Part shown: positions 29,684-58,444 of the stretch, piece after piece
Numbering within the stretch: position 1 is the first letter of the stretch
Layout: every line of letters starts with the position of its first letter
Source of the DNA: a virus
Taxonomy: Duplodnaviria > Caudoviricetes
Direction: 5' to 3' (one strand)
IMG/VR virus record: IMGVR_UViG_3300037601_000088
Span: 32,001 to 96,000 of that record
DNA length: 64,000 nt
Made by a program: the position numbers and the translations under genes
Notes under the pieces: generated by a model
What the model was told of the DNA's origin: nothing
Seen by the model: the letters and a program-made list of their open reading frames with translations, nothing else
Databases searched by the model: none

Positions 29684-31690
29684 ATGGAAAATTCAGTAAG
29701 CATAGCACGTCAACAAAGAGAAGAACAAGAACAAGAATCACTTATGGAGAGGTTAAACTCTTCAATAGGCGGTGTTTCTGACAGTAATATATCTGTTAAA
29801 AATGAGTTGAGTAAACTTGTAGAAAAAACAAAACAAGCCTCTATTCAAAATGATTCTATAAATCTCATAAATCAAAATGATTATGCAACCAAATTTTCTA
29901 TGTTTAATGCAAGAGAATTATCAGATGCAATTGAAGGTGCTTTAAGTAAAGCATTAATTCAATCGCAGCCTCCACCAATACCTATACCTTTACCAATCAC
30001 AATTGAAAGAGAAAGTGATTTCTCTAGAGATTCGACCTTGGAAGATATAAAAAATGGGTTAGAGAAAGAACCATCAATCTATTCTAATATAAAAGATGGA
30101 TTAAATGCTGCAGTAACTCAGCTCAAGCAGGTTGGTGATTATCTAATACAAAGTAAAGATTTTCTATTTAGTTCCATGGGCATTGAACAAGATACTCTTG
30201 ATGCTATCCGTGAACAAAATGAAAGATATGCCTCTCAATTTTTAAGGGATGATGCAGAAGAAGATAGAAAATTAACGATATTTAATGTCATCGGTGAAAA
30301 GCTAAAAGAAAATCTAAAAGAAGCCTTTGAAGATCTTGATATACATTTTGATGGAAGGGTGTCAAATACGTATAGAGTTTTTGGTGGTTTATTCGGCTTC
30401 CTGGGAGCATTGACAAGTGCTCTTATGCCTTTTATGGGCATTATAGCCGGTGGTGCAATCGTTGCAGTCCTTGTTTCTTCTTTTGAATTTTTTACCGAAT
30501 TTGAAAGGACTGGCAGAGCTTTTCAGCAATTATTAGATGGTGGATTTTTAAATGCTATTCCTAATTTGATTAATTTATTTGGTGCGGTCGGTGAAGATCT
30601 TGGAAACATGGTTCAGACAACTGAAAGATTTGATAGATTAGTCTCAGCAATCGGAGATATTTTTACAAACCATCTCTTTCCTGCGATGGAATACTTATTT
30701 AATCTTTTATCAGAAATGGTTGTATCTTTATCCGATTATCTTCAGGGAGAAGGCGGTCAAAAGTTAACTGATTCTTTAATATCTTTTTCTTATTTTGTTA
30801 CAGATGTATTGATCTTTTTCTTTGAGTCTGTATTACCTCCTATATTAGATACGATAGGATTTGCTTTCAGAACAGCAGAAACAGCAATAAGAGCAACGAC
30901 TCCTGCGTTTGTTTTCATTTTTACAGAAATGTTGCCGGGGCTTTTGAGGGGTATTGAAAGACAATTTACCGCTATAGGCGACTATATACAAAATATAATC
31001 GATGATTTTGCGGCAATATTTAATTCAGAAAATCCTATTCAATTTGCTAACAGCTTTACAAATGTTTCTGTTTCTCTATCTGGATTTGTTCTATCAACGA
31101 TTGATAATATACTTTCAACCATAATGGATGTGTTTGCAATCGATGATTTACTTGGGGTAGAGGATGGAACTTTGGTTTCTGAAATGTTATCAGATTTATT
31201 TTCAAGCTTATCTGAAAAATTTATTGATTTTGTTTCTAATGTAAGAGATGCCTTTGTAGAAAAGATAGATGAAATAACAGATTACATTATGAGTTTGGAT
31301 CCTTTAGAATTAATAATTGATAAAATACAAATGTTTGTTAATTCTATTGTAGATCTTATTCCAACACCCGCTGACATTTTAAATGGTATTAGAGGGTTTG
31401 TTACCGATATACCATTGATACCAGATGCTGTCAGGGATAGGTTATTAGGAGTGGGTACAGTTCAAGCTTCTGAGATACAATCTCCAGCCACGGTTGTTCC
31501 TGGTGCAATTCGTGAAATACAAGCAAGAGAAGAATTAACGCGTGAGCTTAATATGATCATCAATACTCCGCAAACTCAAGTCCAGCCTAGACAAACTCCA
31601 GGTATTTCCAGACCTTCAGGAGTTCCTAGAACTTCGCCAAACATGACACCATCTGATAGAGTTCTTTATGGATTTGGTGAATTAAGATAA
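29684..31690 (+). CDS. tape-measure-like (gp29-like) protein
   Basis: 668 aa helical protein with hydrophobic G/A-rich segment and amphipathic repeats; late promoter. Confidence 0.55.
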   Translation: MENSVSIARQQREEQEQESLMERLNSSIGGVSDSNISVKNELSKLVEKTKQASIQNDSINLINQNDYATKFSMFNARELSDAIEGALSKALIQSQPPPIPIPLPITIERESDFSRDSTLEDIKNGLEKEPSIYSNIKDGLNAAVTQLKQVGDYLIQSKDFLFSSMGIEQDTLDAIREQNERYASQFLRDDAEEDRKLTIFNVIGEKLKENLKEAFEDLDIHFDGRVSNTYRVFGGLFGFLGALTSALMPFMGIIAGGAIVAVLVSSFEFFTEFERTGRAFQQLLDGGFLNAIPNLINLFGAVGEDLGNMVQTTERFDRLVSAIGDIFTNHLFPAMEYLFNLLSEMVVSLSDYLQGEGGQKLTDSLISFSYFVTDVLIFFFESVLPPILDTIGFAFRTAETAIRATTPAFVFIFTEMLPGLLRGIERQFTAIGDYIQNIIDDFAAIFNSENPIQFANSFTNVSVSLSGFVLSTIDNILSTIMDVFAIDDLLGVEDGTLVSEMLSDLFSSLSEKFIDFVSNVRDAFVEKIDEITDYIMSLDPLELIIDKIQMFVNSIVDLIPTPADILNGIRGFVTDIPLIPDAVRDRLLGVGTVQASEIQSPATVVPGAIREIQAREELTRELNMIINTPQTQVQPRQTPGISRPSGVPRTSPNMTPSDRVLYGFGELR

Positions 31691-31691
31691 T

Positions 31692-31734
31692 AAAAAACGC
31701 CGCGTTTGAAATAACATAATCCAAACGCGGCGTT
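31692..31734 (-). terminator. intrinsic terminator (probably bidirectional)
   Basis: 13-bp GC-rich stem 31696-31708/31722-31734 with a U-tract on the minus strand. Confidence 0.8.
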
Positions 31735-31971
31735 CTTCATGTATTTAAGGTAAATACATAACCTGAAGAACTTTGGCATCTTACATTCTTCCTTTAAGGC
31801 CCATCTACAACCTTAAACACTTCGAATAAGAACTACTGTGGCAGATCACAGTTGCTTACAGGAACCACCAAGTAAACTTTAAGATAATTTAGGTGGTTGT
31901 GAAAAATATACGTACTATTTTTCCCTAAATTATCTTTTGGATGGATATCAGTTCTTAATTACCCAACCAAT
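31692..31971 (-). ncRNA. candidate structured ncRNA B (about 280 nt)
   Basis: Own promoter, at least six stems plus terminator; no ORF. Confidence 0.6.
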
Positions 31972-31977
31972 AATTTA

Positions 31978-32007
31978 TATATACATCGATTCTTCTTATA
32001 TGTAAAC
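31978..32007 (-). promoter_or_regulatory. early promoter GTTTACA-17-TATATA
   Basis: Same class as the promoters at 13770 and 14630. Confidence 0.7.
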
Positions 32008-32012
32008 AGCCT

Positions 32013-32065
32013 TAAGTGTCATATTTGACTCTTAATTTATCATTAACAACCAAATATGACACTTA
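32013..32065. repeat. 15-bp perfect inverted repeat
   Basis: TAAGTGTCATATTTG 32013-32027 / CAAATATGACACTTA 32051-32065. Confidence 0.85.
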
Positions 32066-32068
32066 GTG

Positions 32069-32214
32069 TTACTGCACATTTCTGGAAAGCACCAGAGATT
32101 ATTCCTGATATCTCCCAACCTTTACCGCGCTATGATCAACTCGCATCAGCTCAAGTATGTCACTTTCGAAGGGTGTGAATCGCTTTTCACCAGCTCTCCA
32201 GAAATGTGCAGTAA
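32069..32214 (-). ncRNA. candidate structured ncRNA A (about 146 nt, 22-bp closing stem)
   Basis: 18-bp perfect terminal inverted repeat extended by a G-U pair only on the minus strand; begins at the predicted TSS. Confidence 0.7.
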
Positions 32215-32217
32215 TTT

Positions 32218-32247
32218 TTTATACACAAAGTAAAAGCTTATGTAAAC
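32218..32247 (-). promoter_or_regulatory. early promoter GTTTACA-17-TATAAA
   Basis: Same class; predicted TSS near 32212. Confidence 0.72.
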
Positions 32248-32379
32248 CTTTTTTATGCGTAATATTTTGGTGGCTCGGGATCAATCCACCAATTATCATT
32301 TTCAGCAGGCCTAAAAAGAAAAGGCCTGAGACTATATCGAAAATTTTTAATATAACCTTTTGAATAAATAATAACCATT

Positions 32380-33783
32380 TTATACCTCTGCTTTCTTGCG
32401 AATTTCATCAAAGTATGAGAAAATATTGAATTTACCGTTTGTAAAAACAGGCTTCAATAAATTACCGCTATACTTTTCAATCTGAGCAAAATCATTTCTC
32501 GTGTAAGGTTCAAATTTATTACTCACAGACTGAATACCCGCTTTAGATACTTTTTTAGTATCTGTCACTGGTTTCTTATAAACAGGAAGAATTTCATCTC
32601 CTATTTTGATAGCACATGCTTTCATTGCGTAACCAAGACTATCACGATTTACTTTTTGCAATAATCCTGCACCCATACCGAAGGCAATATTATCTGCAGA
32701 CCATCCATTTTTTCGATAGTTTTCTAGAATATTGCCAATTGAATGAATATTCACGCCATCACCTTGAATGATACGAACATTATTTAAAACTTTAAATCCT
32801 TTGGTATTAAGAGTATAACCAAAACGTTTACCTAAAATTTCAATAACATCCAATGTAACATCAATTGGATCTCCAGAATCTGGCCGAATAACAAGAGTTG
32901 CCTGAGAATCAATAATCTTTTGTTTTAAATGTGTCCCCCATAATTCATCACATGCTCGGTAAATATCATAAGAATCTGATACACAAGCAAGTAATGCCTC
33001 AGGTTTTGCAAACTGATTTAACATATTATCAAAAGCATCAATTTCTTTATCAGGACCACCCCATGCAGTGATTGTACTATGTTCAGATGCAGGGATAGAG
33101 AATCCTGTAGAATTAATGCCGGCGCCATAATTTTCCCTAAGATATATCAGGGAAGTTAAAGTGTCAGTCCCCATAAAATTAATTAAATGAGCACCACCAC
33201 CAATTCGGGCCTGTTCTTCAGAGGTTGTTCCACGCGCACCAAAATCATGAAGTTTGAATGGAAGCCCATCTAAATTATCAGCGGTCATTTCGAGATAACC
33301 TTTGATAATTTTTTTAACTTCACGAGATAGTGTCGCCACGGTTGAAGGATACCAAACAGCTCGTAGAATAACGGTTTCCAAGAAGCTTGTTAACCAAAAG
33401 CATTTTGGATCAGTGTTATAGACTTGAACCTGCGGTACACCTACAGGAAAAACTGTTCCTTCTGGAAGAGCCTCAATTACAATAGGAAGTCTTCCTTCGT
33501 GAACATTTAGAATATATTCCCAACCTTCACGATTGAATGGTACACCATGAGCTTTACAAACAAGATCAGCTTGATTGATCTTTTGTTGAGTAACAACTTG
33601 ACCGACCAAATAATTCCTTATAAAAGCCTGAAGGCCGAAGTTGACAATTTCATCCGTGTAATTCATTTCAGCTGAGGTATAGCGAGGCTCAATATATGAA
33701 TACACTGTCTCGGTTTTTGGCGGATATTGAAGATAGTGGCTGTGTTTATAGCTATCAGCCATTAAGAGTAAATTATTTTCCAT
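32380..33783 (-). CDS. nadV: nicotinamide phosphoribosyltransferase (NAMPT)
   Basis: DSYKHSH, WYPSTVAT, LHDFGARG, PASEHS, VSDSYD, IRPDSGDP and IIQGDG motifs. Confidence 0.95.
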   Translation of the reverse strand: MENNLLLMADSYKHSHYLQYPPKTETVYSYIEPRYTSAEMNYTDEIVNFGLQAFIRNYLVGQVVTQQKINQADLVCKAHGVPFNREGWEYILNVHEGRLPIVIEALPEGTVFPVGVPQVQVYNTDPKCFWLTSFLETVILRAVWYPSTVATLSREVKKIIKGYLEMTADNLDGLPFKLHDFGARGTTSEEQARIGGGAHLINFMGTDTLTSLIYLRENYGAGINSTGFSIPASEHSTITAWGGPDKEIDAFDNMLNQFAKPEALLACVSDSYDIYRACDELWGTHLKQKIIDSQATLVIRPDSGDPIDVTLDVIEILGKRFGYTLNTKGFKVLNNVRIIQGDGVNIHSIGNILENYRKNGWSADNIAFGMGAGLLQKVNRDSLGYAMKACAIKIGDEILPVYKKPVTDTKKVSKAGIQSVSNKFEPYTRNDFAQIEKYSGNLLKPVFTNGKFNIFSYFDEIRKKAEV

Positions 33784-33785
33784 TT

Positions 33786-33831
33786 CATAAGTTCCTTATG
33801 TTAGTTTGAATATTGAACGTCTATCGTTCAA
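33786..33831 (-). promoter_or_regulatory. AUAGA-loop hairpin plus RBS-sequestering hairpin (copy 1)
   Basis: UUGAACG-AUAGA-CGUUCAA, then CAUAAG-GAA-CUUAUG over the RBS. Confidence 0.6.
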
Positions 33832-34148
33832 ATGACCATGAGAATTTCTTTAGCAATTTCTAAAATTTTATTAAAATCACTATAATCAAGAGTTTTGTCA
33901 AGATTATTGACAAAAATTTGTGCATCATGTAAACACAAATTTTTCATATAACCTGGCTGTGACCATTTTTCATAATACCAGGCTCCGTCCGTGTCTCCTT
34001 TCTTATATTTTATTCTATAAATTTCTTCAGCAATAGGAATTAGAGGATTATCTATAATTTGTTTCTCTAATGCTTCTCTTTTTTCAAGAAGCATTTCGAG
34101 TTCAGATTCGACTGATTGAATGTTTCTATTAACTTGATCTAAATTCAT
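33828..34148 (-). CDS. hypothetical protein
   Basis: AGGAG RBS; N-terminal coiled coil. Confidence 0.7.
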   Translation of the reverse strand: MNLDQVNRNIQSVESELEMLLEKREALEKQIIDNPLIPIAEEIYRIKYKKGDTDGAWYYEKWSQPGYMKNLCLHDAQIFVNNLDKTLDYSDFNKILEIAKEILMVI

Positions 34149-34151
34149 AAT

Positions 34152-35240
34152 TTAAACTCCTAGCATATCTTTGACAATAAAATAATGATCCTCAAACATT
34201 TTTTTAGGATTCAATTCATTTAATGGTACCCATTTTGCTTTGTCAGCATCGTCAGAACCCCTAACTTTTGGTAGTGAAGTTTGAGCCGGCAAACTAATCA
34301 AAAAAGCCTGAGTAATTAACCTACCACGAGCAGACCTATGTGGATCATCATAAGTTTTACTTTCTTTAATTGATCCACGAAGAACAGCTTCAGGTACCTT
34401 AAGTTTTGTTTCTTCCTTAAGTTCTCGGATAGCGGCATCTTCTAATTTTTCGTATTCATGAATAAAACCTCCAGGAAGGGCCCAAATGCCTTTGCCTGGT
34501 TCTGACCTTCTACGAACAAGAAGAATATGACCAGATTGAACAACAACAGCATCAACGGTATGTTCAATACGAGGATATTTACTTACACCTTTTTTATAAA
34601 CTTCAATAAATTCTTGTTCAGTTTTTAGCTTCGTATATGTTTCTGTTTTTTGAAATTTTTTAAGAAACTCCAAAGAATCATTAGAAAGAAAATTATTTAA
34701 AGCATTTTGTGCGGTATGAGTTCCGGTTTCAGGATCCCAACTAGGATTTATTGCTCCATAACTCCAATAAAGTTCTCTAAGATCAGTAGCATTAATTGGA
34801 TCTAAAAATTCTACAGATTCATTTCCCCATGTAGGGAATAATTTGAGATAATAACTAGTATGATCCTTTGCGCAACCAATAAGACCAATCTTATCATTTT
34901 CGTTAGTTTCGTTATCAACCAACTCACGAACTTCTTCAATCCAACTATTATCATTATATGTATGATCATTAAGAGGGAGAATTACTAATGAGTTATCAAC
35001 ATCATATTGACAACTAAATTCACCTTGTTGGTGATCATATAAACCATATGTTCGTTGAATCATATGTTTACGTTCTTCAAACGTAAAAGGATTACGCATG
35101 CTCCTGCCAGAATTAGCAGAACCAATGAGAACAATTACTTTTTTAGAAAGTTCGAGAGCACGGTCAATTACGCGCTTATGGCCATTATGAAATGGCTGGA
35201 ATCTCCCTATGAAAACTAGGGCATCATACTTATAAGTCAT
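34152..35240 (-). CDS. nadM: bifunctional NMN adenylyltransferase / Nudix ADP-ribose pyrophosphatase (NadM-Nudix)
   Basis: GRFQPFHNGH, NPFTFEER, Nudix box LPGGF..AAIRELKEET and FEDH motifs. Confidence 0.93.
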   Translation of the reverse strand: MTYKYDALVFIGRFQPFHNGHKRVIDRALELSKKVIVLIGSANSGRSMRNPFTFEERKHMIQRTYGLYDHQQGEFSCQYDVDNSLVILPLNDHTYNDNSWIEEVRELVDNETNENDKIGLIGCAKDHTSYYLKLFPTWGNESVEFLDPINATDLRELYWSYGAINPSWDPETGTHTAQNALNNFLSNDSLEFLKKFQKTETYTKLKTEQEFIEVYKKGVSKYPRIEHTVDAVVVQSGHILLVRRRSEPGKGIWALPGGFIHEYEKLEDAAIRELKEETKLKVPEAVLRGSIKESKTYDDPHRSARGRLITQAFLISLPAQTSLPKVRGSDDADKAKWVPLNELNPKKMFEDHYFIVKDMLGV

Positions 35241-35287
35241 CGAAAAACTCCTCTTCGACTAATGTATACTGGAGTCTATCTCCAATA
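35240..35287 (-). promoter_or_regulatory. AUAGA-loop hairpin plus RBS-sequestering hairpin (copy 2)
   Basis: UAUUGGAG-AUAGA-CUCCAGUA, then UCGAAGAG-GAG-UUUUUCGA covering the RBS and the A of AUG. Confidence 0.6.
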
Positions 35288-35684: not shown

Positions 35685-35850
35685 AGATTATTTCTCCGCA
35701 TCTTTCTAAATCATGAGAAAATTCCAAACAAGATCGAAAGGCATTATTTTCATGCCTTTCGATATCTACCTTTGCTATTTCTTTGGCAATATACATGAAA
35801 GTAACACACGCCATAAAAATAACGAATACAAGGAAGTCTTTTTTACCCAA
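35674..35850 (-). CDS. small membrane protein
   Basis: Probable TTG start overlapping the upstream stop; one TM helix. Confidence 0.45.
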   Translation of the reverse strand: MGKKDFLVFVIFMACVTFMYIAKEIAKVDIERHENNAFRSCLEFSHDLERCGEIIYGN

Positions 35851-47902: not shown

Positions 47903-47976
47903 TGGTGACTTCAATCAGAATCGAACTGATATCTTTCGATTTAGAATCGACTATAATACCATTATACTATAAAACC
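47903..47976 (-). tRNA. amber suppressor tRNA (CTA anticodon)
   Basis: 74-nt cloverleaf; anticodon arm GTCGA-TTCTAAA-TCGAA, T arm ATCAG-TTCGATT-CTGAT, CCA end. Confidence 0.8.
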
Positions 47977-57771: not shown

Positions 57772-57789
57772 ATTTTTACAATTCGCGTT

Positions 57790-58396
57790 TTTAGATCCTA
57801 TTCAACTTATCAAGACGTAATCTCACACAAGTAAAAAAAGAATTAATTTAATCTTAAAATAGATATAACACGTAAAACATAATAAAGGATCTAAATTATT
57901 CTCTGAAAAAATTAATCAGTGAGAACTGTCCTTTAATAACGTATCCATATGACGGTACGTCACTCTATCTGAATCCTTCTATACCTCAGCTGCCGATTTT
58001 CCGCTGGCCAAACGTCCCACCCCTTTTTACTAAAAGAGAAAAAATTTTTAAATGTGATAAATTAGCTGAGTTACTTTTATGCTCTATAGAGAAGAAACAT
58101 AAAACGGTCGCCTAGCCGAAAGGAAACCATAGTTTGGAGACTGGTAAACTATCAAACCCGCTCAACATTTTATTAGATCTAGACAGACCCGAATAGAGAA
58201 ATGTATTCGTAAAAACTATTCTTTTTATTTAAAAAATTTCTTTTTCTCTTTAAATAAAGCGGGAACCTCCGAGCAGACCTTTAATTTAAAGAAATAAGTG
58301 TTACCTTTTTAAACCTAATTTTTAGCAGTTAAAAGTTTCAGTTATCTGGATTACTCTTCTATCACTATGATAGAAATTGCTTGTCTTATTAGTCAA
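57790..58396 (-). ncRNA. candidate large structured RNA (about 600 nt) or R-loop origin transcript
   Basis: ORF-free 670-bp gap with own promoter and at least nine stems. Confidence 0.6.
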
Positions 58397-58402
58397 TTTT
58401 TC

Positions 58403-58432
58403 TATATAAGATATAAAAATATATTTGTAAAC
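58403..58432 (-). promoter_or_regulatory. early promoter GTTTACA-17-TATATA
   Basis: Same class as the other early promoters. Confidence 0.65.
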
Positions 58433-58444
58433 ACTAAAAATGAA

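Follow-up and report, generated by a model that had tools for sequence, protein, structure and literature searches.

The minus strand between a conserved 41-aa ORF and a convergent tape-measure-like gene is predicted to encode a non-coding transcript, RNA2. We consider there to be an even chance that RNA2 is a genuine, lineage-specific accessory early non-coding RNA gene, the second of two modules at this site. The DNA analyzed here, referred to as the window, is 64,000 nt in length and corresponds to bases 32001–96000 of a 147,252-bp IMG/VR virus record (32% G+C; estimated completeness, 85%). RNA2 is modeled from a single sequence. None of 200 dinucleotide shuffles of this sequence, which give a minimum free energy of −57.6 ± 4.8 kcal/mol, folds as well as RNA2 itself, and the region has its own promoter, P2, and ends in an intrinsic terminator. 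The 41-aa ORF and the tape-measure-like gene are separated by 562 nt that lack an ORF, in a genome with a coding share of ∼93% as determined by greedy ORF calling. The features of the locus are listed in Table 1.

Table 1. Features of the RNA2 locus in window coordinates, in the order of minus-strand transcription
Feature	Position	Strand	Description
NMNAT/Nudix gene	34152–35240	−	Context
Nicotinamide phosphoribosyltransferase (NAMPT) gene	32380–33783	−	Context
Conserved 41-aa ORF	32253–32378	−	Coupled to NAMPT stop codon; upstream edge of insert
Promoter P1, first module	32218–32247	−	GTTTACA-N17-TATAAA
RNA1 module	32013–32212	−	Closing stem of 20 bp (32212–32193/32090–32071) and hairpin of 23 bp (32065–32013)
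Promoter P2	31978–32007	−	−35 GTTTACA (32007–32001), 17-nt spacer, −10 TATATA (31983–31978)
RNA2, predicted ∼280-nt non-coding transcript	31692–31971	−	Minimum free energy −94 kcal/mol, z −7.63; no Rfam match; no ORF
H1, 5′-terminal hairpin	31937–31970	−	Starts at nt 2 of predicted transcript; pair probability 0.86
H2	31881–31936	−	Perfect stem of 13 bp and stem of 8 bp; internal loop ACAACCA (7 nt), apical loop 7 nt; probability 0.99
H3 (31877–31854) and H4 (31852–31835)	31835–31877	−	Hairpins of 6 bp each; probability 0.93–0.94
U-rich 14-nt linker AGUUCUUAUUCGAA	31821–31834	−	Unpaired in minimum-energy fold
3′ domain	31741–31820	−	Extended hairpin of 11 + 10 + 7 bp, or three local hairpins
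Intrinsic terminator	31692–31738	−	GC-rich core stem, 9-nt loop, U6 tail; z −7.4
Tape-measure-like gene, late region, convergent	29684–31690	+	Context

Phage, Operon, and Promoters

The closest homologues of the baseplate wedge protein gp6 of this phage are in T4-like phages of Rhizobium, Caulobacter, and Stenotrophomonas, with a best identity of 37%, and baseplate hub/lysozyme and tape-measure-like proteins are also encoded. From its gene content the virus is a distant T4-like myovirus. Outside the window, at G000:C1:8892–9332 (L131:493–933), the record contains a permuted, alphaproteobacterial-type tmRNA (RF01849, 138.7 bits; tag ANDNVADGEIVRLAA), which makes an AT-rich alphaproteobacterium the probable host. 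The other phage-encoded RNAs besides this tmRNA are tRNAs, two of which were identified by the Rfam search of the window, together with no further family. A suppressor tRNA with a CUA anticodon is located at window positions 47903–47976. A release-factor-like gene with a GGQ motif, also outside the window (G000:C1:135200–135812; L084:1–612), has one in-frame TGA (L084:70–72), and the next start codon 3′ of it is only at position 493 of L084; the TGA may represent programmed read-through or recoding. A 15-nt match to RNA1 at 135.65 kb of the genome lies inside this coding region and was dismissed as a chance match.

The NAD-salvage operon is on the minus strand and runs leftwards through the NMNAT/Nudix gene, a 106-aa ORF, NAMPT, and the 41-aa ORF. 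The NAMPT and NMNAT/Nudix pair resembles NARP2 (bioRxiv 10.1101/2024.02.11.579819) and consists of counter-defense-type NAD genes. The 41-aa ORF is translationally coupled to NAMPT, has a Trp/Pro-rich C terminus (NDNWWIDPEPPKYYA), and matched no PHROG family. Hairpins with an identical AUAGA loop are present 5′ of both NAD-salvage genes (window 33813–33831 and 35267–35287, minus strand); the heptamer GATAGAC is not enriched in the window, where six copies are found and 5.1 are expected. These hairpins were considered as an element common to RNA1 and RNA2 and rejected, there being no copy in either. Further upstream, a 158-nt intergenic gap (window 35685–35842, minus strand) holds a terminator-like hairpin of 12 bp and one other hairpin (z −3.6) and is probably an ordinary internal terminator.

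A sequence-only reading of this DNA had placed the promoter of RNA2 at 32007–31978, exactly 240 bp from a first promoter. This is borne out by the motif GTTTACA-N17-TATA, which is found at 32247–32220 and 32007–31980 with precisely that spacing. The same motif occurs at five sites in the window as compared with 0.23 expected, and the nine sites in the 147-kb genome that conform to GTTTAC(A/T)-N17-TATA(A/T)A are all intergenic. An ATG with a Shine-Dalgarno-like purine run follows within ∼100 nt or less of six of the seven family promoters other than P1 and P2, and the sequence 3′ of three members (P1, P2, and the site at 58432) is free of ORFs. The last of these, the third GTTTACA-N17-TATATA promoter (58432–58403), leads into 673 nt of ORF-free sequence, the longest such gap in the genome (window 57772–58444, minus strand), which has minus-strand ORFs of no more than 24 aa, no Rfam match, and weak structure (z −1.8).

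The early-promoter consensus of the PeSL elements of T4/PST phages is TTTACW-N17-TAYWAT (PMC4122927). In the −10 element P1 (TTTACA-N17-TATAAA) agrees with this consensus at five of six positions and P2 (TTTACA-N17-TATATA) at four, the TATATA of P2 being a poorer match than the TATAAA found in most family members. RNA2 had been described as an early RNA, which is plausible because P2 fits the consensus (PMC4122927). The predicted start of the P2 transcript, near 31971, is one base before H1.

Predicted Fold of RNA2 and RNA1

Most of the stability of RNA2 relative to shuffled sequences derives from three segments, H2 (z −6.4), the 3′ domain (z −4.4), and the terminator; neither H1 (z −1.8) nor the segment with H3 and H4 (z −1.7) is significant alone. 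With the terminator removed, z for the remainder is −4.5. The 13-bp stem 31924–36/31881–93 and inner 8-bp stem 31916–23/31901–08 recognized by the sequence-only reading are both present, the former without a mismatch, with a pair probability of 0.99, and the hairpin at 31835–52 that it described is part of the minimum-energy fold (probability 0.93). The long-range stem 31950–57/31827–34, which was thought to enclose these elements, exists as a possible pairing but is outside the minimum-energy fold, where H1 (31970–31937) competes with it; enforcing it gives −91.1 as compared with −94.0 kcal/mol. Similarly, three successive 3′ hairpins (31793–31817, 31765–91, and 31739–59) are a possible alternative, but the minimum-energy fold prefers a single extended domain at 31820–31741 (probability 0.84–0.99). 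Two imperfect direct repeats of ∼30 nt, 70% identical and 49 nt apart, are contained in the 3′ domain. The UGGUU loop of H3 is complementary to the internal loop of H2, and a loop-loop contact between the two is possible in the model.

The terminator that had been proposed to follow the hairpins is of the canonical intrinsic type (31738–31692), with a GC-rich core stem and a U6 tail. It was missed by a simple terminator scan, limited to loops of 3–8 nt and a T-run after the stem, because the folded loop is 9 nt and the U-run is drawn into the 3′ arm. It adjoins the stop codon of the convergent tape-measure-like gene, and its A-rich 5′ flank makes it bidirectional.

A structure scan of both strands of the 20 ORF-free gaps of at least 150 nt identified strong structure only in the gap that contains RNA1 and RNA2. 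Here z for the minus strand is −4.1 to −6.3, always stronger than for the plus strand, and values in the other gaps range from about +3 to −3.5. Region 31692–32212 forms 21 G-U pairs and a fold of −176.7 kcal/mol on the minus strand as compared with five G-U pairs and −144.2 kcal/mol on the plus strand, and z for the 3′ domain is −4.4 on the minus strand versus −1.8 on the plus strand. This strand specificity argues for selection on the minus-strand RNA and not for palindromes in the DNA.

In RNA1, the fold signal is confined to the 20-bp closing stem and the 23-bp hairpin; the 102-nt interior folds no better than shuffled sequences (z +1.1). The hairpin (32065–32013) lacks a U-tract, and 6 nt separate its end from the −35 element of P2; P1 transcripts therefore probably read through into RNA2. 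When folded together, RNA1 and RNA2 have an energy of −176.7 kcal/mol as compared with −171.9 kcal/mol for the sum of the separate folds, so that the domains fold independently. A paralogous relationship between the two modules was rejected; their alignment covers the promoters only.

Relatives and Homologue Searches

The RNA region is not an assembly artifact because it recurs exactly in independent data: six contigs from six different samples, assembled separately (Logan SRR12659297, SRR12659100, and SRR12659296; JGI 3300037566, 3300037590, and 3300037790), match the window with 100% identity over as much as 6.5 kb. Of these, three cover the whole RNA region without sequence variation, and hence without covariation.

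The tape-measure-like protein has one relative among 5.8 billion proteins (48% identity), which is encoded on a 31.8-kb JGI contig, L083. This contig is syntenic with the window, its NAMPT and 41-aa ORF being 72 and 62.5% identical to those described here; the next NAMPT relative, at 62% identity, is not syntenic. In L083 the terminator follows the stop codon of the small ORF after a few bases, the intergenic region is just 150 nt, and the terminators of the two phages correspond in position and in their A-rich flank. From this alignment, the window phage would carry an extra block of ∼510 nt (approximately 32252–31743, comprising P1, RNA1, P2, and the body of RNA2) that uses a pre-existing operon terminator, or else L083 would have lost the block. 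Since the only syntenic relative lacks the two modules, the block is lineage-specific and dispensable for the core life cycle. The NAD modules also differ: in L083 (8392–13061), AAA_28, PnuC-like NMN transporter, and NADAR genes are located between NAMPT and NMNAT/Nudix, whereas in the window (32380–35240) there is just the 106-aa ORF.

No homologue of the RNA region was detected in L083, in INPHARED by blastn with the “distant” setting (query 31600–32400), or in 76 NAMPT-bearing IMG/VR loci by blastn and nhmmer, and the bodies of RNA1 and RNA2 have no second copy in their own genome. Exact and gapped pattern scans of viral, metagenome, and genome contigs gave only matches without flanking similarity. 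A 19-nt exact match between RNA2 nucleotides 103–121 and the NAMPT genes of contigs L020 and L008 was discarded as chance; the flanks cannot be aligned, the NAMPT gene of the window differs at that point, and a search of 596 Gb of genomes gave the same 19-mer only twice, both times in an unrelated context. The Infernal/Rfam comparison that had been suggested as a check came out negative, in that the Rfam 15 covariance models yielded no family for RNA2 at gathering or permissive thresholds; the best match within 31500–32500, which owed its score to the terminator hairpin, reached 24.8 bits (E = 0.07) where 85 would have been needed.

Proposed Role, Alternatives, and Comparison with Known Systems

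As an independent gene, RNA2 would be transcribed by the host RNA polymerase from the early-type promoter P2, starting at ∼31971 and stopping at ∼31692 at the intrinsic terminator of the operon. The product would be an RNA of ∼280 nt with five or six helices, its 5′ end inside a hairpin and its 3′ end a U-tailed hairpin. Such ends are typical of long-lived bacterial small RNAs, and from the hairpin at its start and the U-tailed hairpin at its 3′ end RNA2 may be expected to be stable. RNA1 and RNA2 together would form the ∼510-nt block inserted between the last NAD-salvage ORF and the operon terminator, and RNA2 would also represent the 3′ half of a ∼520-nt P1 transcript, P1 having no terminator of its own. 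In a tightly packed phage genome, the commitment of ∼560 bases and two of the nine strongest host-type promoters to sequence that folds strongly and has no ORF suggests a selected RNA.

RNA2 would act in trans early in infection, and the sequence-only reading had suggested a possible protein sponge or defense decoy. Binding or titration of a protein seems slightly likelier than long antisense pairing because there is no extended complementary target in the phage and the RNA is mostly helical; the position beside counter-defense-type NAD genes was counted weakly towards such a protein-binding or decoy role. Complementarity of RNA2 to the rest of the phage genome does not exceed 13 nt (E of at least 0.5), and shuffled RNA pairs at least as well with the phage tRNAs. 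An Hfq-type trans-acting small RNA would have an intrinsic terminator with a U-tail of at least six and a single-stranded seed with mRNA targets; RNA2 has a U6 tail and an unpaired 14-nt linker, and among the phage matches, of 13 nt or less, no target stands out. No protein-binding motif array was recognizable in RNA1 or RNA2, each of which has three GGA triplets by hand count; in the 280 nt of RNA2, two of the three are within or at the edge of helices, so counted, and do not form an array of GGA loops of the CsrB/Rsm type. Other classes of structured RNA also found no counterpart: the 147-kb record, at an estimated 85% completeness, has no match to RVT_1 that would indicate a retron; a YrlA-like Y RNA has no TROVE or DUF2828 partner in the genome, and both ARAGORN and Rfam are blank at the RNA2 locus; and tandem repeats like those of the type III antitoxin ToxI are absent, the one 30-nt pair being 70% identical with its copies 49 nt apart. 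A more specific proposal, which is very unlikely to be correct, is that RNA2, alone or fused to RNA1, serves as an RNA-based factor for counter-defense or host takeover. Made in abundance early in infection, it would be a decoy for an RNA-binding or immune-sensor protein of the host, which it would titrate, and it would have been gained as a mobile promoter-led module beside the NAD+-reconstitution genes.

The block might instead have no separate gene and function in cis as a structured 3′ UTR of the NAD-salvage mRNA, serving as a 3′-exonuclease barrier, a site of RNase III processing, or an insulator between early transcription of the minus strand and the late plus-strand transcription that converges on it. 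The long, near-perfect helices of 19–23 bp have the size that RNase III requires; the RNA region follows the last ORF and precedes the operon terminator, which is shared, and upstream transcription should run through the RNA1 hairpin, which has no U-tract. However, L083 manages with the terminator alone, a 3′ UTR does not require two internal consensus promoters, and the predicted starts of both modules coincide with the starts of helices, and we consider this explanation unlikely. A further, distinctly unlikely explanation is that the block is an evolutionary by-product in which the shuffling of PeSL-type promoter/stem-loop cassettes has brought them into a hyperplastic region, their cargo being either decayed or without function from the start. 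Its indel relative to L083 is exactly at a gene boundary, the neighboring gene content differs between the two phages, and the hairpin at 32065–32013, followed after 6 nt by P2, has the appearance of a PeSL-like composite of stem-loop and early promoter. This composite is, however, peculiar to P2: the 70 nt upstream of P2 fold with −25.9 kcal/mol, whereas the corresponding values for the other eight family promoters, P1 included, are −2 to −16 kcal/mol with stem-loops that do not abut the promoter, and in the search for a recurrent combination of PeSL-type stem-loop and promoter across the genome only P2 fits. Moreover, the bodies of the cassettes are not repeated in the genome, the open frame within RNA1 has no protein homology when translated, and decayed cargo would not give z values of −4.5 to −7.6 together with strand-specific G-U pairing.

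The locus is also a strand-switch point with early-type promoters, as would suit a replication-origin transcript that primes the leading strand through an R-loop, in the manner proposed for T4 oriE (PMC3016281). Iterons and tandem repeats were not found at the locus, the strong intramolecular folding would disfavor a persistent RNA-DNA hybrid, and L083 lacks the block; we regard an origin as highly improbable. Least credible is a small protein. The absence of an ORF claimed by the sequence-only reading is correct for transcribed-strand frames of at least 30 aa (code 11, TAG read as Gln, and code 4) except for a 37-aa frame at 31779–31666. This frame has an ATG with a plausible Shine-Dalgarno sequence, AAGGAAG, 8 nt 5′, but it spans the 19-bp terminator stem and ends at a stop codon 26 nt beyond the U-tail, and thus a terminated transcript would carry no stop codon. 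The start of the frame is hidden within the 3′ domain of RNA2, and the frame has no homologue.

For an accessory early RNA gene, parallels include phage small RNAs with their own promoter and terminator, such as the stable RNAs C and D of T4 and the early small RNAs reported for Pseudomonas phages. RNA2 resembles these in its size range, non-coding nature, and host-polymerase signals. T4 RNAs C and D are located in a tRNA cluster and processed from it, whereas RNA2 is at the end of a NAD-salvage operon and is not similar, in sequence or by covariance model, to the curated families. Decoy and sponge RNAs include sponges of the CsrB/RsmZ type, viral decoys of the VA type, and RNA anti-CRISPRs; RNA2 shares with them a mostly helical structure, its prediction as an early viral RNA, and a position beside counter-defense genes, a functional likeness that is speculative, but it has neither a repeated binding motif nor likeness to a CRISPR repeat. 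Phage small RNAs of known function are few, and RNA-based host takeover and anti-defense are little explored; the present phage, with its tmRNA, tRNAs, and further RNA candidates, may prove useful as an example of a large viral RNA toolkit.

The PeSL cassettes of T4-type phages (Arbiol et al. 2010, PMC2839356; Comeau et al. 2014, PMC4122927) have the same TTTACW-N17-TAYWAT type of promoter and are also similar to the RNA2 locus in the stem-loop directly 5′ of P2, the location in a variable region, and the indel between related phages. PeSL elements flank small ORFs (PMC2839356, PMC4122927), in contrast to the cargo at P2, which is ORF-free, strongly folding, and single-copy. With the T4 oriE transcript (PMC3016281), RNA2 has in common an early-mode promoter, a strand-switch region, and a 3′ sequence with no coding product, but the RNA2 locus lacks iterons, the RNA is highly self-structured, and the block is absent from L083. 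Viewed alongside these systems, RNA2 would be an orphan addition to the phage-encoded small RNA genes, a class that is already known.
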